Shown: positions 1,247 through 54,287 of the stretch, in pieces | Layout of the letters: each line of letters begins with the position of its first letter | Numbering within the stretch: the stretch's first letter is position 1 | Source of the DNA: a virus | Lineage: Duplodnaviria > Caudoviricetes | IMG/VR virus record: IMGVR_UViG_3300005805_000073 | Coordinates: 1 to 64,000 of that record | Length of the DNA: 64,000 bases | Direction: 5' to 3' (one strand) | Translations under genes and position numbers: made by a program | Notes under the pieces: generated by a model | What the model saw: the letters and a program-made list of their open reading frames with translations, nothing else | Databases searched by the model: none | Told to the model about the DNA's origin: nothing

Positions 1247-1438
1247 TTATCCTCTGTTGATTATTGATTGTAATAATTGTTTTATTTCTAACAAGTCGTT
1301 TTTGACTTCGTTAATTTCTTCTTGAAGCTCGGATATCTTTTGAACCTGACGCTTTTCCTGACGCCGAGCAATAACCGATGTTGTATCTGTATTTATAAGA
1401 GCTTTGGAATTCTTATCCCGAATATACGTGGTTTCCAT
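1247..1438 (-). CDS. Small conserved hypothetical protein of T4-like phages (coiled coil)
   Basis: 63 aa with an RD..SKALINTD motif; translationally coupled to its neighbours. Confidence 0.7.
   Translation of the reverse strand: METTYIRDKNSKALINTDTTSVIARRQEKRQVQKISELQEEINEVKNDLLEIKQLLQSIINRG
1390..1397 (-). promoter_or_regulatory. Possible T4-type late promoter TATAAATA upstream of the tail fibre gene
   Basis: Exact consensus match, but it lies inside a CDS. Confidence 0.45.
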
Positions 1439-9880: not shown

Positions 9881-9888
9881 TATTTATA
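9881..9888 (-). promoter_or_regulatory. T4-type late promoter TATAAATA
   Basis: Exact consensus in the intergenic gap upstream of 9845. Confidence 0.8.
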
Positions 9889-16350: not shown

Positions 16351-16358
16351 TATTTATA
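16351..16358 (-). promoter_or_regulatory. T4-type late promoter TATAAATA
   Basis: Exact consensus a few nt upstream of the gp25 start. Confidence 0.8.
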
Positions 16359-24366: not shown

Positions 24367-24374
24367 TATTTATA
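24367..24374 (-). promoter_or_regulatory. T4-type late promoter TATAAATA for the leftward baseplate operon
   Basis: Exact consensus 30 nt upstream of gp48, overlapping the gp4 start. Confidence 0.8.
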
Positions 24375-25517: not shown

Positions 25518-26084
25518 ATGTCAATAGAACAATTTCTCACCGTTGTTCGTAGTAAAGGATTGGCCCGTGTTGAGAAATTTTCAGCCAGAATATATCCTCC
25601 TGCATCATTGACAGCTGCAGGACCTGAAAATGACACACTGATGTTGATGTGTGAAGAGGCCGCCTTTCCTGGAAAAACTGTTCTAACCAGAGCCGCCCGT
25701 ATCCACAATTTAAATATACAACGTCCTTCTACTGTAGATTTCTTTGGTGAATCAGCCAACTTCACCTTCTTTATGGATTCTGAATGGAAAGTGAAAACAT
25801 TCTTTGATAACTGGATGGATACAATTATTGGAACATCCCGTGAGGTGTCCCCTTATAATGATATCATAGGAAATGTAGAAATTTATGCTGTACATGAAGG
25901 TGCTATAGGAGAAGATACATCAACCGCCTATAAAGAAACAATTCGTTATAAAATAAAATTACATGAAGCATTTCCTAAATCAATGAACTTAATGCAGGTG
26001 TCATATTCTACACCAGGTATTCATCGGTTAAACGTGGGATTTGCCTATAAATATTGGACTGTTGAAAATTATAACCAGGGTTAA
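25518..26084 (+). CDS. Tail tube / baseplate-tail tube initiator (gp54/gp19 family)
   Basis: CE...PG...FF.WMD.I...L.EAFP..M....S......L.V.FAY..W motif. Confidence 0.8.
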   Translation: MSIEQFLTVVRSKGLARVEKFSARIYPPASLTAAGPENDTLMLMCEEAAFPGKTVLTRAARIHNLNIQRPSTVDFFGESANFTFFMDSEWKVKTFFDNWMDTIIGTSREVSPYNDIIGNVEIYAVHEGAIGEDTSTAYKETIRYKIKLHEAFPKSMNLMQVSYSTPGIHRLNVGFAYKYWTVENYNQG

Positions 26085-31916: not shown

Positions 31917-31945
31917 AACATACTATAAAGTTTGGATAATGTCAA
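31917..31945 (-). promoter_or_regulatory. Sigma70-type early promoter TTGACA-N17-TATGTT
   Basis: Upstream of the hydrolase gene, followed by an AAGGAGG RBS. Confidence 0.75.
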
Positions 31946-32694
31946 GAGTATCCAAACATCTCATAGTCATCTTGAAACAGGTAGCGTACTACATCGTCAA
32001 ATTTTTTTGTAGTGAAATCAATATTTACACTTGTATTGTTACTTGAATTAATTTGTTCAAGGTTGTTAGTTGAATATCCTAACGTTTTTTCAATCCAATA
32101 ATTAAACTCTGATAGGTTTTCATAACGAAATGTTTTTACTTGTGGATGATAAGCATACTCAGTTTGTGTTACAAACATACTTGTAACGAATGATGGATTT
32201 TCTGTTTGAAAAATCTCACCTACAATACAACCGGGTTTTAATTTACTATTTTTATCAAAATGTGTATATATGAAATTGTAAAATACTTCTTCATTTTCTA
32301 AGAAATTAAAAAAACTTCTGCTTTTTTTAAAATCAGCTATACTGTTATCCTTCTCCACAATTTCAATTTCACCACAAAATTCACATATGGACAAAATGTT
32401 ATGTACATCCATTTCTTTTAATTGTGAATTCAACTTACTTTGTAAATGTCTCAACCCTGAAATGAAACGACTTTTTGGATGTCTAACTAATCCAAATGCA
32501 AGTTCTATGTTTGGTTTATTTGCACACTGTGCAGATTTCATGCGAGAAAAACTTGCATGAGCATGAACTATCATATTAGTACTTTGTTCATTGAGCAATT
32601 CAGAAAAAAATAATTTTTGATATGAATGTGTTGCTGTTCTTGGCACCTTAACCCAAAAATATTTTTTACCATCTAATAACGAAGAAACAATCAT
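31942..32694 (-). CDS. Sulfotransferase family protein (Sulfotransfer_2-like)
   Basis: KVPRTAT (5'-PSB loop), VRHPKSRFIS (3'-PB) and terminal F.DDYEMFGY. Confidence 0.8.
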   Translation of the reverse strand: MIVSSLLDGKKYFWVKVPRTATHSYQKLFFSELLNEQSTNMIVHAHASFSRMKSAQCANKPNIELAFGLVRHPKSRFISGLRHLQSKLNSQLKEMDVHNILSICEFCGEIEIVEKDNSIADFKKSRSFFNFLENEEVFYNFIYTHFDKNSKLKPGCIVGEIFQTENPSFVTSMFVTQTEYAYHPQVKTFRYENLSEFNYWIEKTLGYSTNNLEQINSSNNTSVNIDFTTKKFDDVVRYLFQDDYEMFGYS

Positions 32695-32699
32695 ATTGT

Positions 32700-34208
32700 T
32701 TATGAAGTGAATTGTGTATAGCAGCTGTATGAAGAATTACACACACACGGAAAACTTGCCTTATAACAAACACCATAAGGGTTATAACACGCATATCCAC
32801 AGAATGCTGTGATTACAGACACCTCTGAATTGATATTCTCAGTGAAAAATCTATAGGATTCTACTGCTTCTTCAGGTGCTGAAGTGTATATTTTAAGAAA
32901 CATATGTTTTGTTTCTACTTTATTATTTTCTGAATCTAGAGCTCTAGTAACAATCCGATATGCGGCTGAAGGTAAATCAACAGGAGGATTTATCGTCAAT
33001 TTTGTACCATCAACGGTTATCCAACTAGGAAGGCTTGTGAATCCTCCTCCCTCGTTTGGTATTCCGTTAAATTGTAATTGTGTGGCATATAAATTGTTAT
33101 ATTCCAACACTATCTCATGTGAAGTCCCTTTTTGAATTGATACTTCATTAGGACCTGTGATGATACTAGATAATGTGGCAGCTCGAACCAATCGGTTAGG
33201 TGTAGTGCCATAGGTGATTTCGTTGCGGAATAGGATATCAATGCTACATCGTTCAATTAAATGAGTTTGTATTGCAGAGGCGTTCATGCTAGGATTTTCT
33301 ACAATATGTTGAGCCAAAGCTCCTGACACCACACCTGCAGCAATGGAAGTACCTGAGGCTTCCAACATACCTCCACTTATATCTGCAACATTCACATCTA
33401 TGCCTGGGGCAAAAACATCAACTTCAGGGCCAAAATTGCTTAGTGCACCTTCACCCCAGCTAATCACACGGTCATAGGCATCACTTGCACCAACTCCTAA
33501 TACCATATTTAATCCCACAGGTGAATAATCATCAGCAGCAACGCCTGTATTACCCGCAGCTGCAACCACCACAAGATTATCTGCGTACAACTCAGCAATT
33601 TTCAAATCTAGAATTTGACTCTTAGGAACCAACCAAGAACAATTCACAATGGCGACGGATGCAACATCATGATGATTTAAAATGGCATCAAAAGCAGCCA
33701 GTAAAACACTATATGTCGTTGATGAACCCGTTGGAATTTTCACATCATTAAGGTTCACATTTTTGGAAATGCCTAAAGTTTTACCTGCAATCACGCTGGC
33801 AACCGAAGTACCGTGTCCATTTGTAGGGGTGAAATCTGAATTATAACTAAACAATTTGTTTACTGTTGTATGAGAGAATTCTGGGTGTGTATCATCAATA
33901 CCAGAGTCAACAACATAAACATTCACACCATCACCATAGTTCTTTACCTTATAGAAGTTGGTCATGGGCAATCCTTCAGATACAATACGAAGCTGATGCC
34001 ATTCAAATGATTCTACTGGTGTAACCTCAGAATCAATTTCAAAAGTGATAACTCCTGAAACTTCTGAAAATGAGGTTGATTCTGCACTCAAGGTTAAAAC
34101 ACCAATATTCGAAAACACATCATGAATCACAGTGCCAGCTGATTCTAACTCAGACCGTAGAACATCGATGTCAACATTTTTATCATATATTACATTATAC
34201 TTTACCAT
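32700..34208 (-). CDS. Subtilisin-family S8 protease with prodomain, Ig-like domain and Cys/Tyr-rich C-terminal peptide
   Basis: Intact triad motifs VVDSGID, NGHGTSVAS and SGTSIAAG, plus AAGN oxyanion motif. Confidence 0.95.
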   Translation of the reverse strand: MVKYNVIYDKNVDIDVLRSELESAGTVIHDVFSNIGVLTLSAESTSFSEVSGVITFEIDSEVTPVESFEWHQLRIVSEGLPMTNFYKVKNYGDGVNVYVVDSGIDDTHPEFSHTTVNKLFSYNSDFTPTNGHGTSVASVIAGKTLGISKNVNLNDVKIPTGSSTTYSVLLAAFDAILNHHDVASVAIVNCSWLVPKSQILDLKIAELYADNLVVVAAAGNTGVAADDYSPVGLNMVLGVGASDAYDRVISWGEGALSNFGPEVDVFAPGIDVNVADISGGMLEASGTSIAAGVVSGALAQHIVENPSMNASAIQTHLIERCSIDILFRNEITYGTTPNRLVRAATLSSIITGPNEVSIQKGTSHEIVLEYNNLYATQLQFNGIPNEGGGFTSLPSWITVDGTKLTINPPVDLPSAAYRIVTRALDSENNKVETKHMFLKIYTSAPEEAVESYRFFTENINSEVSVITAFCGYACYNPYGVCYKASFPCVCNSSYSCYTQFTS

Positions 34209-34232
34209 GGGATTCCTCGTTTATAGTACAAG

Positions 34233-34838
34233 TTATCTATTATTTATATTGTTTGTATAACTAAACATTTCATTTATCCCTAAAATTTTTGTGGCCCATA
34301 TCTTTTCCATACAAAAATAACATCCCCCGCATTCGTTATAAGATACTCCGCAGGAAGCAGTCATTTTCAACAAGTCTAAAAGGTCATATTCTATATATTT
34401 TCTCACAATTTCTATCTTGTCCCACTCAATAAATGGTCTAATGTGACGCTCATTCAACGGGTCTCCACGAACAGGAGGGGTATCATCTGGGATGTATACT
34501 GTGGGAATAAATTGGTCGGTCACCACCTTGTTACATCCCGTAAACACGTAATCTGAATGACATACATTAAATACATCTCGAACCACATTTCGTATCCAAT
34601 CTCTGGGAGCTGAGCAATTATATGTGATAGTCAACGGAAATTTTTCCTGTATCCAAGAAATAATAGCTCTAACATAGGAGGGTCTTACTGTACCTCCTCT
34701 ATAGGAAACGCAATCCAAATGCACGTTTAATTTATTCTCGTGGATTTCTTTTGCTAGCAAATATAACAATAATGTACTGTCTATTCCGCCTGAAACTAAT
34801 ACGGTTATCTTACGAGCGTCGTTAGGTATCATATTCAT
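34233..34838 (-). CDS. QueC-like PP-loop ATPase (paralog 1)
   Basis: VSGGIDS PP-loop and C-terminal TASC...CGGCYFCMEK Zn site. Confidence 0.8.
   Translation of the reverse strand: MNMIPNDARKITVLVSGGIDSTLLLYLLAKEIHENKLNVHLDCVSYRGGTVRPSYVRAIISWIQEKFPLTITYNCSAPRDWIRNVVRDVFNVCHSDYVFTGCNKVVTDQFIPTVYIPDDTPPVRGDPLNERHIRPFIEWDKIEIVRKYIEYDLLDLLKMTASCGVSYNECGGCYFCMEKIWATKILGINEMFSYTNNINNR
34241..34248 (-). promoter_or_regulatory. T4-type late promoter TATAAATA upstream of the subtilase
   Basis: Exact consensus about 33 nt before the subtilase ATG. Confidence 0.7.
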
Positions 34839-34849
34839 AGAAAAGGTAA

Positions 34850-35120
34850 TGGGGGTATTCTGTTCCCAGGAACCCCCTAACCCGGCTAAAATGTCTTACG
34901 CAGCTAGGGCGTAAGAGGTAGCGAATGACATATAATTGTTGTCATTTAATGTTTTTGCTCTGCTTAGGGCAGTCGCCTATCCGGTAGCTCTATCCTATAC
35001 TTCTTCCCCTGTCGAAACCAAGCACCCCCGAATATACCACACAAAACACTAATGGAGGTGAGGGGAGTCGAACCCCTGTCCAAGAAAAGTTTCCATTTTA
35101 GCAATCTACTACCATCCTAC
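34850..35120 (-). ncRNA. ssrA: Circularly permuted (two-piece) tmRNA; tag peptide (A)DNNYMSFATSYALAA
   Basis: Acceptor piece with T-arm AGGGG-TTCGACT-CCCCT and CACCTCC-A (ends 35053) precedes a 23-nt spacer. The coding piece starts GGGGGTG (35029) with a GGTTTCGAC loop. The G3.U70 pair is present. The tag ORF at 34943-34896 follows TAAAT and ends ALAA*. Ends are approximate. Confidence 0.92.
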
Positions 35121-35124
35121 TAAA

Positions 35125-35784
35125 TTATTTATACACCTCGTATAAATCACGATAATACAACAACTGTTCCACATGAAGGTCACGTTTGCTTTCAAACACT
35201 TGCATGAACCCATCTGATACTGCAATCAAGATGGTCAGTCTGTTCACAGGTATCTTGGTTCGTTCCTCAAACATGATGGCATAGGCAGCTGCTTGCATGA
35301 AATAGTGTTGGATGTGTTCCACATCTTTCTCTCGTCGCGCCGTCTTGAAGTCAATCACACTGAGTTTACCATCAAAATTGGCTATGCAATCCACTCGACC
35401 TGCCAACCGAAGATGGTGTGACCATAACGCCACTTCTTGAGCTCTGATATTGTCAATTCTGTCTAACACAGGATTAGCAACCTGAAACATCTCATGGTCC
35501 CAGAGGGACATATCTCTGCCTGACAAATTGTTCTGAAGATATTTTTCTACTAAAGTATGAAATCTAGTACCCCAGGCAGCTGCTTGTCGAGACACCTTAT
35601 TGGCCTCTTCAGCACCAACACGTGCCCTCCACTCCTGAATACCCTTTTTGGTGTGCTCAGAAAGAACAGAGGTGACAGATGGATAGAGCCCACCATCAGG
35701 TGTTTGATAGGCTCTGGTTCCATCTGCCTGTGTCACGGCGGATATGGTTTCTATTGTTACTGGATCATGGAGGAATGTTTTCAT
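35125..35784 (-). CDS. PD-(D/E)XK exonuclease of T4-like phages
   Basis: YPSVTSVL...EWR.RVG.EEA...GT.FH...E..L.S..L.LAGRVDC...IDFKT...YF.Q..AYA motif. Confidence 0.92.
   Translation of the reverse strand: MKTFLHDPVTIETISAVTQADGTRAYQTPDGGLYPSVTSVLSEHTKKGIQEWRARVGAEEANKVSRQAAAWGTRFHTLVEKYLQNNLSGRDMSLWDHEMFQVANPVLDRIDNIRAQEVALWSHHLRLAGRVDCIANFDGKLSVIDFKTARREKDVEHIQHYFMQAAAYAIMFEERTKIPVNRLTILIAVSDGFMQVFESKRDLHVEQLLYYRDLYEVYK
35126..35133 (-). promoter_or_regulatory. T4-type late promoter TATAAATA directly upstream of the tmRNA
   Basis: Exact consensus overlapping the exonuclease stop codon. Confidence 0.75.
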
Positions 35785-35790
35785 AACAAT

Positions 35791-35819
35791 AATATATCAC
35801 ATCACTAGAATTTTGTCAA
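35791..35819 (-). promoter_or_regulatory. Sigma70-type promoter TTGACA-N17-TATATT
   Basis: Directly upstream of the exonuclease start. Confidence 0.75.
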
Positions 35820-36571
35820 GCCACAGCCATGTCCTCACAAGCCATTCTGGCCATGATGTATTCCTTCACCAAAGGACCTCGAACAATGTCTTCCACATCA
35901 AACTCCACGTGACGGAAAGATGGCATATGGTGAGCAATGGCCATGAACTTTTTCAATCCTGACATGTCTGACCGTTTCTGTAAATCCGTCTGGCGGAAAT
36001 CACCACAGAAGATGATTTTGGTGTTTTGCCCGACACGGGTCATGATGCTGTTCAGTTCCATATCATTCATGTTTTGGGCTTCATCCACAATCACAATGCA
36101 GTTGTCCAAGGTCAATCCACGAACATAGGAAGTGACCATGAAATGGATGAGACTTTGTTCTTTCAATTTGTTATAGGCACGTTCCCCGAATCGTGGGAAC
36201 AAATCAGCACAAATTTCTTGATAGGGTTGTGAGTAGATTTCCACTTTCTCCTTTTCATTTCCCGGAAGAAACCCAATGTCACGGGAAGGCACTGCTGAAC
36301 GAACTATCACGACTTTACTATAATTGGAATTTTCCAGTATCTCCTTGAAAGCGCTGTGCATGGCGATGTATGTTTTCCCTGTTCCTGCCACACCATGGCA
36401 CAAGATGGCCTTGTGTCCTTTACGATAGAAATTGAAGAAGTTCTCCTGATTATTAGTGAGGGGATAAATTTCCTTTAAATCTGTGAGTTTTACTTTATGT
36501 TTGGATTCTTGTTCTTCTTGATAGATGTAGGTTTGGGAGGTGACCAACTTAAGGCGCTTTTTTCTGGACAT
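35816..36571 (-). CDS. phoH: PhoH family ATPase
   Basis: GVAGTGKT, RSAVPSRDIGFLPG, RGLTL...IVDEAQN and GDFRQTDL motifs. Confidence 0.97.
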   Translation of the reverse strand: MSRKKRLKLVTSQTYIYQEEQESKHKVKLTDLKEIYPLTNNQENFFNFYRKGHKAILCHGVAGTGKTYIAMHSAFKEILENSNYSKVVIVRSAVPSRDIGFLPGNEKEKVEIYSQPYQEICADLFPRFGERAYNKLKEQSLIHFMVTSYVRGLTLDNCIVIVDEAQNMNDMELNSIMTRVGQNTKIIFCGDFRQTDLQKRSDMSGLKKFMAIAHHMPSFRHVEFDVEDIVRGPLVKEYIMARMACEDMAVA

Positions 36572-38432: not shown

Positions 38433-38461
38433 AATCTAACACCATATATGGTATTTGTCAA
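38433..38461 (-). promoter_or_regulatory. Sigma70-type promoter TTGACA-N17-TAGATT
   Basis: Upstream of ligase, followed by an AAGGAGG RBS. Confidence 0.75.
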
Positions 38462-39561
38462 GTGTTATTTAACAAATGGTGAAAATTGTGTCCAACTGTA
38501 GCACCACTTACAGTTTTTTTATTGTGTATTTTTTGTAGTTCCAAAAGGAATTGTTGATGTTGTTCATGTTCTGGTTCAAATACTGAAATAGCTTTAACAT
38601 GAGCAGAAGAATATGCACCCGTTCCCCAATACACATGTTGTCTATAGTGGATATAAAGTTGAATTTTAGATTTAGAAAAAATATCGTTAAATGTGTGATA
38701 AAAATCTTCCATCTCTTTGTAATTATATTCGCTGACCACCATAGAAACAATAAAGTGTTCTATACTATCTTGTGTGCTTAAATATTGTATGTTGGAAATT
38801 AATCTATCCCAATCTCCGTTCAACCGCGTAATGTTTTCATATGTATCTTTGGTTCCTGCGTCTACACTAATTTCTATTCGTTTGATGAACTTTCTGGCAC
38901 CTAAACTCATCCACATTTTTTCATTTAACAAATTGCCATTTGTAATAATCTGTATTTCTTCTAGTTTAGGATATTTTTTAGGATCAAAATCTATCAGATA
39001 ATTTCTATACAGTTTAGAGTAAAAAGGATCACCGCTTCCAGTTATCATTAAACGTTTCACATTAGCAGCAAATTTTGTTTCAATTTGTTCTAAAAGATAT
39101 TCTTTTCTTTTGTGTGCAAATGAATTTACATCGTCATTCGGCACTTGTTCATTTCTGCATGATGGACATTTTAAGTTACAACTCCTATCGAATCCGAATA
39201 AAATATACTCAGGGAGACCCTGAAAATTCTCAACATCTTCTAAAGAAGTTATATTAAAAGTTTTGAGTGCTTCAGACTTTTCTATGAATTCTATAGGTAC
39301 TTCATCGGTATTAATTAATTTAGATAAAGAAGGACAAACTTTATGGTCGCAGTGACGATAAGTTCCATCTAGTACTGATTTTCTAATATCAGTTACCGTA
39401 GGACCTTGCCAATCTTTTAATAGGTCTTCCTGCATCGGTGGGGCATCGCCCCCTATATTAGTAGGTGCCCAACTAGGACAACATATCCACTGACCTATAG
39501 GTTGAATATCTAGATATGTGAAAGGATTTTTACAGACATACTTTTTTAATTTTTCTGACAT
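38458..39561 (-). CDS. Radical SAM enzyme with N-terminal twitch/SPASM-like Cys cluster (1)
   Basis: CNLKCPSC; N-terminal C.NPF...CCPSW...C...CP; TGSGDPF and TNG motifs. Confidence 0.9.
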   Translation of the reverse strand: MSEKLKKYVCKNPFTYLDIQPIGQWICCPSWAPTNIGGDAPPMQEDLLKDWQGPTVTDIRKSVLDGTYRHCDHKVCPSLSKLINTDEVPIEFIEKSEALKTFNITSLEDVENFQGLPEYILFGFDRSCNLKCPSCRNEQVPNDDVNSFAHKRKEYLLEQIETKFAANVKRLMITGSGDPFYSKLYRNYLIDFDPKKYPKLEEIQIITNGNLLNEKMWMSLGARKFIKRIEISVDAGTKDTYENITRLNGDWDRLISNIQYLSTQDSIEHFIVSMVVSEYNYKEMEDFYHTFNDIFSKSKIQLYIHYRQHVYWGTGAYSSAHVKAISVFEPEHEQHQQFLLELQKIHNKKTVSGATVGHNFHHLLNNT

Positions 39562-40187
39562 TAGAATGCCACCCATTTTCCTGATCCGTAGTGTGGATAT
39601 TTGGATTTATAGGTGTAATGAATTACATCTGCAGGTATCTCTCGTTTTTTGTTCCATGTGGCTTCAGTCGGTGTGTAGGTAGAAACACCATTATCTTCAA
39701 CTATAAAATATAATGGCAAATCAAAATTTCTAGCATACTTATGTACCTCATAGAATATACCAGTCTCAAAACACATATCACCAATAAAGCACCAAACTTT
39801 ATCTGAACTATTTTGTAACTTTAATGATTTTGCTACGCCTAAGGCAATAGGTAAAGTAGCAGTTACAATAGCGGATGAATAGAATTTTTCATCAATATTA
39901 CATAGAGTTATAGACTTCCCTTGCAATATTTCATTCTTAACCCATTCAGAAGATATACCTTTTAACAAAGCATGATAATGTGACCTCCAAGTACTAAAAA
40001 CCCAATCTGAAGGCTTTATACGCTTGAATATTTCGATGAGTTGAGATTCGTTACCATCGGAAAGATGAATAGGACCGCGTATTTGTCCGGCCTCCCAATG
40101 TGCAACTATATCTGTTTCAAACTCCTGCAAATCCTTTTCACTGATGGTTACTTCTCGCACGGATGCATATTGCTCTAGATTAATCAT
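39561..40187 (-). CDS. Truncated TPP-dependent dehydrogenase E1 alpha-like subunit
   Basis: G..HLS.G.E, STWRSHYHALLKG and IGD....G.FYE...LP..F..EDN motifs; only 208 aa. Confidence 0.85.
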   Translation of the reverse strand: MINLEQYASVREVTISEKDLQEFETDIVAHWEAGQIRGPIHLSDGNESQLIEIFKRIKPSDWVFSTWRSHYHALLKGISSEWVKNEILQGKSITLCNIDEKFYSSAIVTATLPIALGVAKSLKLQNSSDKVWCFIGDMCFETGIFYEVHKYARNFDLPLYFIVEDNGVSTYTPTEATWNKKREIPADVIHYTYKSKYPHYGSGKWVAF

Positions 40188-51397: not shown

Positions 51398-52845
51398 AAA
51401 ACCTTTACGTTATATTTTTCACTAAATTCAATGGCATCTTTTCTGTTATTCACCATGGGCTTGCCTTTGATGTTCAAGCTGGTGTTCAACACCATGGGAC
51501 ACCCTGTTTCACGATACCATTCTTGAAGAAATTCATAGAAATCAGGAGAATCCGTTTTGGATACTGTTTGTACTCTGGAAGTTCCATCAGCATGAATAAT
51601 GGCAGGGAAGGCTAATGGATGTTTACACACGGCCGTGTATTGCATATACGGGCTTTCTGCTGTAGGCATATGAAAATATTCATGTGCATGTTCAGCTAGG
51701 ATGGCAGGTGCAAATGGACGGAACTTCTGACGTTTCTTGATGGCATTCACCTTGTCTTTGATGTCATCACCACGTGGGTCAGCCAACAAACTTCTATGAC
51801 CTAGTGCTCTGGGACCGAACTCAGCTCTTCCGGATGCCACACCTGCAATTTTATCTTGTTGCAATGTTTCAATTAATTGTTCTGTGGGATATTTTATACC
51901 CATATCATAACCAAGATATGGCCCATGCCAATTTAAAAATTCTTGTTGATGTGCTGTGATTGCACCCAAACTATTGCCAGCATCTCCTGGATTTGGCATG
52001 ATCCAAACTCTTTCAAAATACTGAAAGGCTATGCTATTAGCCACACAATTTAAAGCACACCCCCCGCCTAATACTAGATTTTTGCTGCCAGTCAATTTCT
52101 TAGCTTCATCTAATAAATCATGCAGATACAGCTCATATACGAATTGTGTGGCAGCAGCAATATCATACATATCTTGTTCAGTATGTAACTCAGGTCTCCA
52201 CCACATACAACCACGATGAAGATTATGATTGAATTTTAGAATATGTCGGCTGTCAAAAAAATCTTCCAGAATCATGGCTGTGTATTTCAACGGGTCACCA
52301 TAGGCTGCCATGCCCATCAAGATGTATTCTTCTTCATTGGGTTTCAATCCCACACGTTGCGTCATGGCTGAGTACCACAGCCCCAAACTATGTGGATATT
52401 TGATGGAAAACTTCTTTTCCAACTTGGTTCCCTTGCCATGCCAGATGGAGGTGGTGTCAAACTCACCAATGGCATCAATTACCAACACAGCGGCTTCATC
52501 AAAATTGCTGGTGTAGTATCCGCCGGCTGCGTGACTATGATGGTGGTCCACTGTGATGACAGGTGCCGTGATGCCATAGTTCCGAACATATTGTTTGGCA
52601 TTATTGTTCACCCAACCTTGTCCAGCCTGGAGTTGGCGTAGTGACTTCATGAGAGGTCGTTCATACCAGACCACTTCATCAGGTTCACCATATCTATAGG
52701 CATCTGCCACGATGTACGCATTTAGATGAGCGTCATTCTTCACACCAGAATATCGTTCTGATTGTGAGGCAAACAATATCTCCTTGTCTTGCACCACCGT
52801 GATGGCAGCATCATGGCTATTAGCCGAAATTCCCCAAATAATCAT
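51394..52845 (-). CDS. Carbamoyltransferase (NodU/CmcH family)
   Basis: SHDAA, HH.SHAA, DAIGE, GGCALNC.AN, EFGPRALG.RS and NTSLN motifs. Confidence 0.95.
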   Translation of the reverse strand: MIIWGISANSHDAAITVVQDKEILFASQSERYSGVKNDAHLNAYIVADAYRYGEPDEVVWYERPLMKSLRQLQAGQGWVNNNAKQYVRNYGITAPVITVDHHHSHAAGGYYTSNFDEAAVLVIDAIGEFDTTSIWHGKGTKLEKKFSIKYPHSLGLWYSAMTQRVGLKPNEEEYILMGMAAYGDPLKYTAMILEDFFDSRHILKFNHNLHRGCMWWRPELHTEQDMYDIAAATQFVYELYLHDLLDEAKKLTGSKNLVLGGGCALNCVANSIAFQYFERVWIMPNPGDAGNSLGAITAHQQEFLNWHGPYLGYDMGIKYPTEQLIETLQQDKIAGVASGRAEFGPRALGHRSLLADPRGDDIKDKVNAIKKRQKFRPFAPAILAEHAHEYFHMPTAESPYMQYTAVCKHPLAFPAIIHADGTSRVQTVSKTDSPDFYEFLQEWYRETGCPMVLNTSLNIKGKPMVNNRKDAIEFSEKYNVKVL

Positions 52846-54287
52846 TGTATTTTAAGTGTGACTTCCTCTTCATTCGGTAAAACTGTTTCCTTGCAGTAAT
52901 GATAAAAGTCTGTATATTCTGGAAACACTTCAAGGAAATTTGTATCTCGGCGCTTATCATACTCATCAACAAACATAGCAAAATTTTTTCTGGCCCGCAA
53001 ATTCTTTAAAGAATTTCCCATTTGTTCAGCACACAAATTATATAACCTGTGCATTCTATGTATCTCATGGTCGTAAAATCCCTTATTAATAAGAGGGAAC
53101 CATGTGGTTTCTTCGTGATTTCTAAACATAAATGTCACACAATCTTCGAGGTGCTTTAAAAAGTTTTCCGTAGCAATCCAAGGAGCAAGAAATTCTGGAT
53201 GTCGCAGATAAGGTGTGTCTACACTCAAAGGTAAAAGACGGTCAGGAGTTCCATATGTGTTTTTAATTTCTAGCATGTCTGCCAAGAAATCTTTAAACGT
53301 GGTTATAGATAATAAATTAAAGGTAGACATAATTGTAACCCTAGAATTTTCCACACGTTGTAGAATCTTATGTATATTCTTTAACCAGTAATCATAATTC
53401 AGTCCAAAACGAATATACTCAGCTTTTTTACCATATGCCTCACAACTAGTAAACACATTGATAGTTTTAACTGACTTATTTTCACTAATTATCTCCAACT
53501 TTTCGATGAATTTTTCAATAATTTCAGGGGGACTGCCTAAATTGGAGTTGATGGAAAATTCTAATTGTGGTTGTGGATTTTCAATCAAAAAGTCCAATAC
53601 CTTAAATGTGTTTTTACTTAAAAGAGGTTCTCCCCCTGTAATACGAAATGTGTGCATCTTCTTCACTGCATCTGGCCACCATTGCCAAAATGCTTCGATG
53701 TAGGGATTTTCTTCACTTTGTAAAATAGGTAGCCCTTTACCTCGTTCTAAATCACTTATGTCATTAAATGATCCCCCAAGAAGAGGATATGGACCATGCT
53801 GCTTAATCTCCTGCATCCATGTAGTAGAATATAAGGGAGAACAATAGGCACATTTAAAATTACAGGTGGTGTCGAAATCTACTTCCACGTATGTAGGGAC
53901 TACATCAGCGTCCCATGGCATTTTTGCTATTTCTCTTAGATGAGGTGCTGCCCAAAATTCTGAACTTTTTGTGATACGGTCACTGTAAACATTTTCTTGC
54001 CCTTTGGTAGCATCTTCCACCCGCCAGCAATAATCACATTCACCTGGGCGTTCTCCCTCCAACATCTGCTTTCTAAGTTCTTTCTTATACTCCGTATTGT
54101 GTAGAGCTGATGGATTTTTCTTTAGCTCATCTAATGGAATTAAGTGCACTTTAGGATGGTGACAACTATGATTTGTCCCAGTACTCAAATGTAATGTTAC
54201 TTGTAGCCATTTGGCTGCACAAAAAGAGGGACTGATGGCTTCAAGATGTCTTTTGGTGCCTTCAAAAATTGTAAGAGCCTGCTTCAT
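52842..54287 (-). CDS. Radical SAM enzyme with N-terminal twitch-like domain (3)
   Basis: FCAAKW...SCHHP...CDYCW, then CNFKCAYC and TGGEPLL motifs. Confidence 0.92.
   Translation of the reverse strand: MKQALTIFEGTKRHLEAISPSFCAAKWLQVTLHLSTGTNHSCHHPKVHLIPLDELKKNPSALHNTEYKKELRKQMLEGERPGECDYCWRVEDATKGQENVYSDRITKSSEFWAAPHLREIAKMPWDADVVPTYVEVDFDTTCNFKCAYCSPLYSTTWMQEIKQHGPYPLLGGSFNDISDLERGKGLPILQSEENPYIEAFWQWWPDAVKKMHTFRITGGEPLLSKNTFKVLDFLIENPQPQLEFSINSNLGSPPEIIEKFIEKLEIISENKSVKTINVFTSCEAYGKKAEYIRFGLNYDYWLKNIHKILQRVENSRVTIMSTFNLLSITTFKDFLADMLEIKNTYGTPDRLLPLSVDTPYLRHPEFLAPWIATENFLKHLEDCVTFMFRNHEETTWFPLINKGFYDHEIHRMHRLYNLCAEQMGNSLKNLRARKNFAMFVDEYDKRRDTNFLEVFPEYTDFYHYCKETVLPNEEEVTLKIQ

Follow-up and report, generated by a model that had tools for sequence, protein, structure and literature searches.

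In an uncultured T4-like myovirus, one phage gene very probably encodes a functional tmRNA that is circularly permuted, consists of two pieces and has the betaproteobacterial structural type. The gene occupies the minus strand from about position 35133 to 34848 of a 64,000-nt stretch of DNA (hereafter the window), itself taken from a 76,233-bp IMG/VR virus record whose completeness CheckV estimates at 46%. A sequence-only reading of the window had claimed that the phage encodes a tmRNA in two pieces and in circularly permuted order, with alanine identity and a tag ending in ALAA, and had named ARAGORN, covariance models and compensatory changes among homologues as ways to check that claim. ARAGORN called a tmRNA at 34805-35142(-), flagged it as permuted and returned the same tag, DNNYMSFATSYALAA. 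The Rfam model tmRNA_permuted (RF04321) matched over its full length (model positions 1-213) with 119.7 bits (E 8.7e-23) against a gathering cut-off of 47. The claim is upheld by this agreement between ARAGORN and Rfam, by helices that covary in 15 homologues, and by a tag that is conserved at the amino-acid level. Judged by these comparisons, the tmRNA gene is real and intact-looking, and it is probably functional.

Layout and structural type of the two-piece tmRNA

The gene encodes a complete circularly permuted tmRNA in the order acceptor piece, 23-nt spacer, coding piece (Table 1). The individual sequence features that had been read from the letters alone (T-arm, acceptor strands, spacer, G3:U70, P2a pairing and tag) are all present on the minus strand. 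As a whole, this feature set is far beyond chance; the sole element that is not is a 9-bp complement, which we consider below.

Table 1. Coordinates of the tmRNA gene, its parts and the adjoining genes in the window.
Feature	Position	Strand	Remarks
PhoH-like gene	35816-36571		Before the exonuclease gene
PD-(D/E)XK exonuclease gene	35125..35784	(-)	Upstream of tmRNA; Pfam PDDEXK_1
Putative T4-type late promoter motif TATAAATA	35126..35133	(-)	5 nt upstream of leader GTAGGATGGTAGTAG
Acceptor piece	35053..35120	(-)	Leader, P2 5' strands, T-arm, acceptor 3' strand, discriminator A; 5' end 35120 placed from the promoter position
Leader GTAGGATGGTAGTAG	starts 35120	(-)	Invariant in phage homologues
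P2 5' strands	P2c 35113-35108; P2b 35101-35099 (CUA); P2a 35089-35081	(-)	
T-arm AGGGG/TTCGACT/CCCCT	35077-35061	(-)	
Acceptor 3' strand CACCTCC	35060-35054	(-)	Followed by discriminator A at 35053
Spacer, 23 nt	35052-35030	(-)	Expected to be removed in maturation
Coding piece	34848..35029	(-)	Acceptor 5' strand, D-loop analogue, P2 3' strands, PK1, tag frame, PK2; 3' end 34848 approximate, taken from the end of the Rfam beta_tmRNA match
Acceptor 5' strand GGGGGTG	35029-35023	(-)	7 bp with CACCTCC, including G3:U70
D-loop analogue GGTTTCGAC	within 34848..35029	(-)	In coding piece
P2 3' strands	P2a 35011-35003; P2b 34992-34990; P2c 34988-34983	(-)	
P2a pairing	35089-35081 with 35011-35003	(-)	CTTTTCTTG with CAGGGGAAG
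PK1 region AGGCGACTGCC..AAGCAGAGCAA	34953..34982	(-)	Invariant among phage homologues
Tag frame GAC...TAA	34896..34943	(-)	15 codons and stop TAA; encodes DNNYMSFATSYALAA
Predicted PK2-like pseudoknot	34851..34885	(-)	CCGGG 34885-34881 with CCTGG 34870-34866; GGGGG 34877-34873 with CCCCC 34855-34851
9-bp match	35102-35094 with 34893-34885	(-)	GCTAAAATG with CATTTTAGC; exact complements in this window only
PP-loop ATPase gene (weakly QueC-like)	34233..34838	(-)	Downstream; ATG about 10 nt past tmRNA

The discriminator A at 35053 is followed by TTA and not by an encoded CCA, so maturation should need 3' trimming and a CCA-adding enzyme. Some T4 tRNAs are likewise encoded without CCA. Searches of the record and five relatives, one of them a 177,878-bp contig of 99% completeness, found no SmpB, an absence that rests mainly on this one relative because the window's own record is incomplete. 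A CCA-adding enzyme of the PolyA_pol family was likewise absent from the record and its relatives, the same contig included. Since neither factor is phage-encoded, both would come from the host. The lack of a CCA and of a terminator means that our reading of maturation depends on assumed steps, and we counted this against the functional reading.

The structural type of the RNA was assigned by comparing covariance models. The beta_tmRNA model (RF01850) scored 81.2 bits (E 6e-25), which is 2.8 bits under its gathering score of 84, a shortfall due largely to the lack of the terminator hairpin and to the greater length of the tag. Homologous phage genes score higher on this model (89-100 bits for close relatives and 130.5 for one gene). 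The alpha_tmRNA model (RF01849) scored 57.8 bits, above its cut-off of 50 but under the beta score, and its alignment leaves the P2b pairs non-canonical; moreover, the T-loop is the canonical TTCGACT and not the reduced alpha type. A default Rfam run labelled the gene alpha for no other reason than that beta_tmRNA narrowly missed its cut-off. An alpha affinity is thus not supported, given the higher beta score and the canonical T-loop, and by these measures the RNA is beta-type, i.e., nearer the betaproteobacterial model.

The likeness to betaproteobacterial two-piece tmRNAs (Sharkady and Williams 2004, as cited in PMC9004378) extends to gene order, the T-arm, the GGTTTCGAC element, the layout of the P2 sub-helices and the PK2 element GGNAACAGAA. 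Furthermore, its 24-nt PK1 signature recurs unchanged in the two-piece tmRNAs of Variovorax, Roseateles, Caldimonas and Burkholderiaceae metagenome-assembled genomes (MAGs). Unlike the betaproteobacterial genes, the window gene is missing about 45 nt from the PK2 region, has neither the terminator hairpin nor an encoded CCA, uses a GAC resume codon, and encodes a longer, phage-specific tag, whereas the bacterial genes recovered have ANDERFALAA or ANDSFYLKQA-like tags. No recent bacterial donor was found when 401 sampled Burkholderiales genomes were searched by blastn, which returned only matches of 26-42 nt; these lie mostly in the T-arm/acceptor region, and the best are in two-piece genes with ANDERFALAA-type tags. 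Because the beta scores of the relatives, the T-loop and the PK1 signature all point to the beta type, with no close donor, the host is plausibly a betaproteobacterium; this is a hint, not an assignment.

Among the bacterial genes from Variovorax, Roseateles, Caldimonas and Burkholderiaceae MAGs (L036-L044), we also noted ARAGORN tags such as ANDSFYLKQA(T) and ANESLYLKQA, which are without the usual LAA/VAA degron end.

Helices and tag frame across phage homologues

The structure was tested on 15 distinct phage genes, which we treat as one family because they can be aligned over their whole length at a mean column identity of 77%. Across these sequences, the 30 canonical pairs of the acceptor stem, T-arm, P2a, P2b and P2c are 96.7% paired. 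Nine of the 30 (six of them in P2) change on both sides, so that the compensatory changes proposed as a check are indeed found among the homologues. None of 500 shuffles reached the covariation score or the percentage paired of the observed alignment, and in a slid control, in which partners were moved by 1-3 columns, pairing fell to 46-58%. Within P2, pairing is 89.6% for P2a, 97.8% for P2b and 100% for P2c. All seven pairs of the acceptor stem form in the window; all 15 homologues have the G3:U70 pair (U:G), and one pair of this stem undergoes a compensatory C-G to U-A change in five sequences. We conclude that the two pieces would be held together by the acceptor stem and P2a/b/c, 25 bp in total (7 + 18).

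PK1 is identical throughout the phage homologues and so offers no variation by which its pairing could covary. In PK2, the G-run/C-run stem is swapped for a different complementary sequence in one homologue (L025), RNAalifold places both-side changes in the predicted outer pairs (272-274 with 302-304), and the hairpin belongs to the Rfam beta_tmRNA consensus; the pseudoknot topology given in Table 1 is our own reading. RNAalifold additionally predicted a helix between GUAG (35120-35117) and CUGC at the tag end, both sides of which are invariant. Thermodynamic folding was no better than for shuffled sequences (z = -0.11) and hence gives no support, a common outcome for pseudoknotted RNAs. No other segment of the gene varies as much as the spacer (about 20-37 nt long, and 12-40% identical where its flanks are 70-94% identical), as expected for a part that is discarded.

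The spacer of the window contains no ORF. Some phage two-piece tmRNA genes have a long intervening segment with a small ORF and a Shine-Dalgarno-like sequence, among them L027 (3540-3640), where a 15-codon ORF comes after AGGAG, L028, and phage Melnitz (L061:1560-1720), whose ORF spans about 45 codons and extends into the coding piece at its 5' end. The spacers of L017 (3260-3300), L010 and L025 contain a direct duplication, with CTCAGAAGT occurring twice, that is lacking in the window's shorter spacer.

The sequence-only reading had instead assigned the joining of the two pieces to a perfect 9-bp helix between GCTAAAATG in the acceptor piece and CATTTTAGC after the tag. The complementarity is real, but it is not conserved: the nine pairs are only 62.4% paired across the 15 homologues, a value equalled by 98 of 500 shuffles, and three of the nine are broken in the closest relative, L017, whose RNA is 94% identical. 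A perfect helix of at least 9 bp also arose in 14% of 300 dinucleotide-preserving shuffles of the 276-nt RNA, and the CUA at 35101-35099 within GCTAAAATG is the 5' strand of the covarying P2b. The homologue test and the shuffling rule out this match as a conserved element, and we conclude that it is fortuitous or at most lineage-specific.

The tag DNNYMSFATSYALAA is carried by the window, L017-19 and L026. Further tags in the 15-gene family are DNSYMSNANSYALAA, DNSYMSYANYSYALAA, GNQYGSYMSSGYALAA, GTYNTPLALAA, GAYNAPLALAA and GTNNMPLALAA, and the more distant pair L027/L028 carries the classical betaproteobacterial tag ANDERFALAA. The tag frames of the window and L017 differ at two places, both synonymous (TAT/TAC and CTA/TTA). 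Short-tag relatives encode LALAA via CTT GCA TTA in some cases and CTC GCA CTC in another, and the last Ala codon is GCT, GCC or GCG among the homologues. The resume codon is GAC (Asp) where an Ala codon is usual, which we counted against the functional reading. Overall, most changes in the tag frame are synonymous and ALAA always closes the tag, the pattern predicted by selection on the peptide.

This pattern bears on whether the RNA could act as a decoy that soaks up host SmpB or AlaRS and blocks host trans-translation with no tagging at all. With no SmpB of the phage's own, the RNA must compete for that of the host, and a precedent has been proposed for the tRNA-like-domain-only RNA of mycobacteriophage DS6A (as cited in PMC4131195 and PMC11915505). 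Two relatives, L012 (3184-3420) and L015 (3184-3440), moreover keep the tRNA-like domain in natural deletion variants whose tag frame ends after ...GCACCTCT, with the tag end, stop codon and PK2 missing. A pure decoy, however, needs neither PK1 and PK2, which are kept, nor the tag frame, resume context, stop codon and ALAA end, which are conserved through mostly synonymous change and across at least five tag variants; we therefore consider a decoy role unlikely and favor a tmRNA that tags. The deletion variants could be real degenerate alleles or assembly artefacts, and their existence suggests that the gene is dispensable for some relatives. In L015, the tag frame stays open and reaches the ATG of the PP-loop gene downstream without a change of phase.

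Phage context, putative late promoter and exchange of the gene

The phage is a T4-like myovirus by its gene content (gp32-type SSB, PhoH, ATP-dependent ligase, baseplate wedge and hub, tail tube cap and tail fibres), and T4-like gp32, baseplate, tail, PhoH and ligase genes flank the tmRNA on both sides. Its gp32 is about 55% identical to marine cyanomyophage versions. The exonuclease and PhoH-like genes upstream of the tmRNA matched PHROG 298 (E 3.9e-66) and PHROG 170 (E 6.1e-81). No intrinsic terminator was found after the tmRNA gene, including the interval before the PP-loop ATPase gene, and the transcript may therefore run on into the latter.

Enzyme genes lie around the tmRNA (31942-34838, 38458-39576 and 52842-54287), namely a PP-loop ATPase, a subtilase (S8), a sulfotransferase and two radical-SAM proteins. 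The PP-loop and subtilase proteins are 41-46% identical to their counterparts in phages whose PhoH and exonuclease are about 90% identical. This hypervariable enzyme block might be a peptide- or nucleotide-modification module.

The tmRNA gene appears to have a promoter of its own. The arrangement of ATAAATA, 5 nt and the leader is invariant in 15 of 15 phage homologues, whatever gene lies upstream. The full motif, TATAAATA, occurs at seven places in the window (1390-1397, 9881-9888, 16351-16358, 24367-24374, 26046-26053, 34241-34248 and 35126-35133), and each copy lies 6-150 nt upstream of a gene start or of the tmRNA on the matching strand, several of them before baseplate or tail genes. The number of copies in the window is not above chance (7 copies vs 6.7 expected), and it is because of position and conservation, not motif count, that we read the copy at 35126-35133 as a T4-type late promoter. 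On the strand of the gene, no sequence resembling a sigma-70 promoter is conspicuous.

To place the gene among its relatives, we used 33 related IMG/VR loci retrieved with the exonuclease protein. A permuted tmRNA is present in 26 of these, usually directly after the exonuclease gene; it is absent in L020 and L030-L034, and some other relatives have truncated copies. The PhoH and exonuclease proteins of the window are 90-92% identical to those of the L002 group and 74% to those of the L017 group, whereas the tmRNA shows the reverse (94% identity to L017 and 71% to L002). A sliding comparison places the switch of nearest relative at the tmRNA start, and downstream of it both relatives are at 40-60%. 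Two further loci, L010 and L011, are mosaics whose 5' half resembles that of the window and whose 3' half is of the short-tag kind. Together, the opposed identities, the switch point and these mosaics indicate that the tmRNA gene sits at a recombination boundary and has itself been exchanged in parts.

More widely, the PK1 signature of the window recurs in 54 IMG/VR contigs, whose tags are diverse. The beta-type family had no blastn match in 50,697 GenBank phage records, and there is no tmRNA beside the exonuclease of phage C48C1, the nearest GenBank exonuclease. Four tmRNA genes among the relatives (L002-L005; e.g., L002:3153-3427) were missed by ARAGORN, with an Rfam score of 111 bits and an intact tag frame, GTNNMPLALAA; an ARAGORN-only annotation would thus under-count phage two-piece tmRNAs.

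These comparisons also weigh against passive carriage, in which the gene, as recently captured host DNA or a decaying pseudogene, would play no part in infection. Such an origin would fit the identity of the PK1 signature with that of some Burkholderiales tmRNAs, the loss of the bacterial CCA and terminator hairpin, and the loci in which the gene is absent or truncated. Yet the 401 sampled Burkholderiales genomes yielded no recent donor, most related loci retain the gene, which shows compensatory changes and has an invariant promoter of the phage late type, and the tag is phage-specific, unseen in the bacterial genes recovered, all of which makes passive carriage very unlikely, even more so than a decoy. 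Least credible of all is that the locus is an attachment site or a remnant of integration into host ssrA and not an expressed gene: integration often takes place at tmRNA genes, and fragments of ssrA are frequent in temperate phages (PMC4383910; PMC9004378), but this gene is full-length and no mere 3' fragment, its promoter and both pieces are conserved, and it lies in a T4-like phage with lytic-type replication and structural genes and no integrase near the locus.

Proposed role and relation to known phage tmRNAs

As a functional two-piece tmRNA, the gene would be expressed late in infection as one precursor, which might extend into the PP-loop ATPase gene. Cleavage by host RNase P would take place before G1 (35029), the 23-nt trailer on the acceptor piece would be trimmed back to A35053, and a host CCA-adding enzyme would add CCA. 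The two RNAs would stay together through the 25 inter-piece base pairs, host AlaRS would charge the RNA with alanine, and host SmpB would deliver it to ribosomes stalled on broken mRNAs. Translation would then resume at GAC and append A-DNNYMSFATSYALAA, whose ALAA end would direct the product to ClpXP-type proteases. The likely benefit would be extra ribosome-rescue capacity and amino-acid recycling at a time when mRNA decay yields many stop-less messages. The RNA may steer rescue or proteolysis during infection, and it may point to the host.

The sequence-only reading had regarded a viral permuted tmRNA as unusual and possibly novel, a view overtaken by published examples (PMC9004378; PMC11915505) and by the many IMG/VR contigs with the same PK1 signature. 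A two-piece tmRNA has been described in the OM43 phage Melnitz, in a survey that counted 53 two-piece genes among 133 unique phage tmRNAs, 50 of them from aquatic phages (Buchholz et al. 2022, PMC9004378), and a 2025 tmRNA database holds 79 phage sequences (PMC11915505).

Melnitz (EXVC044M, a Methylophilales phage, MZ577097), considered here with the pelagimyophages, is the closest known parallel in several respects. Both it and the window's phage are aquatic T4-like (Kyanoviridae-type) myoviruses of about 38% G+C with a permuted two-piece tmRNA, in both the order is PhoH-like gene, PD-(D/E)XK nuclease, tmRNA, and in both the TATAAATA motif lies upstream of the tmRNA. Both tags end in YALAA (ANDNYVPVDYALAA in Melnitz), and SmpB is reported in neither phage. 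In contrast, the Melnitz RNA is alpha-type, with 106.7 bits on alpha_tmRNA and a reduced T-loop, whereas that of the window is beta-type with a canonical T-loop; in Melnitz the CCA is encoded, and the spacer is about 150 nt long with an ORF as opposed to 23 nt. A glutamine riboswitch follows the tmRNA in Melnitz, but none was found in the window at E up to 1. The two tmRNAs have no blastn similarity at E 1e-5, and a search for the tag strings in the Melnitz supplements (PMC9004378) found none.

One-piece phage tmRNAs (mycobacteriophage Bxz1 group and Bacillus phage G; PMC4131195) are alike in that ssrA is present without a phage SmpB, and they are presumed to supplement host trans-translation (PMC4131195). 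They differ in having the standard, unpermuted order, and their phage groups and hosts are unrelated.

These results confirm that aquatic T4-like phages repeatedly carry a ribosome-rescue RNA among their accessory genes. They open no new category, since phage two-piece tmRNAs have already been described in aquatic T4-like phages; what is new is that the published alpha-type examples (Melnitz and pelagimyophages) are extended to a beta-type family that is common in IMG/VR. The putative late promoter, the lack of CCA and terminator, the variable tag body with its fixed ALAA, and the switch of relative at the gene boundary provide handles on phage tmRNA function and on host tracking.

More speculatively, and with the odds clearly against it at present, the tmRNA of freshwater-type T4-like phages could form a cassette that is expressed late, can be exchanged and always sits at the same recombination boundary, behind PhoH and the nuclease. 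Whole or half genes would be swapped (alpha-type in Melnitz, beta-type here, mosaics such as L010) and the tag body diversified while ALAA is kept, so that the tag and tRNA-like domain would be tuned to the SmpB, adaptor and protease set of the current host, and the CCA-less design would tie maturation to host enzymes. If this were true, the locus would be a host-range marker rather than just a source of extra rescue capacity.
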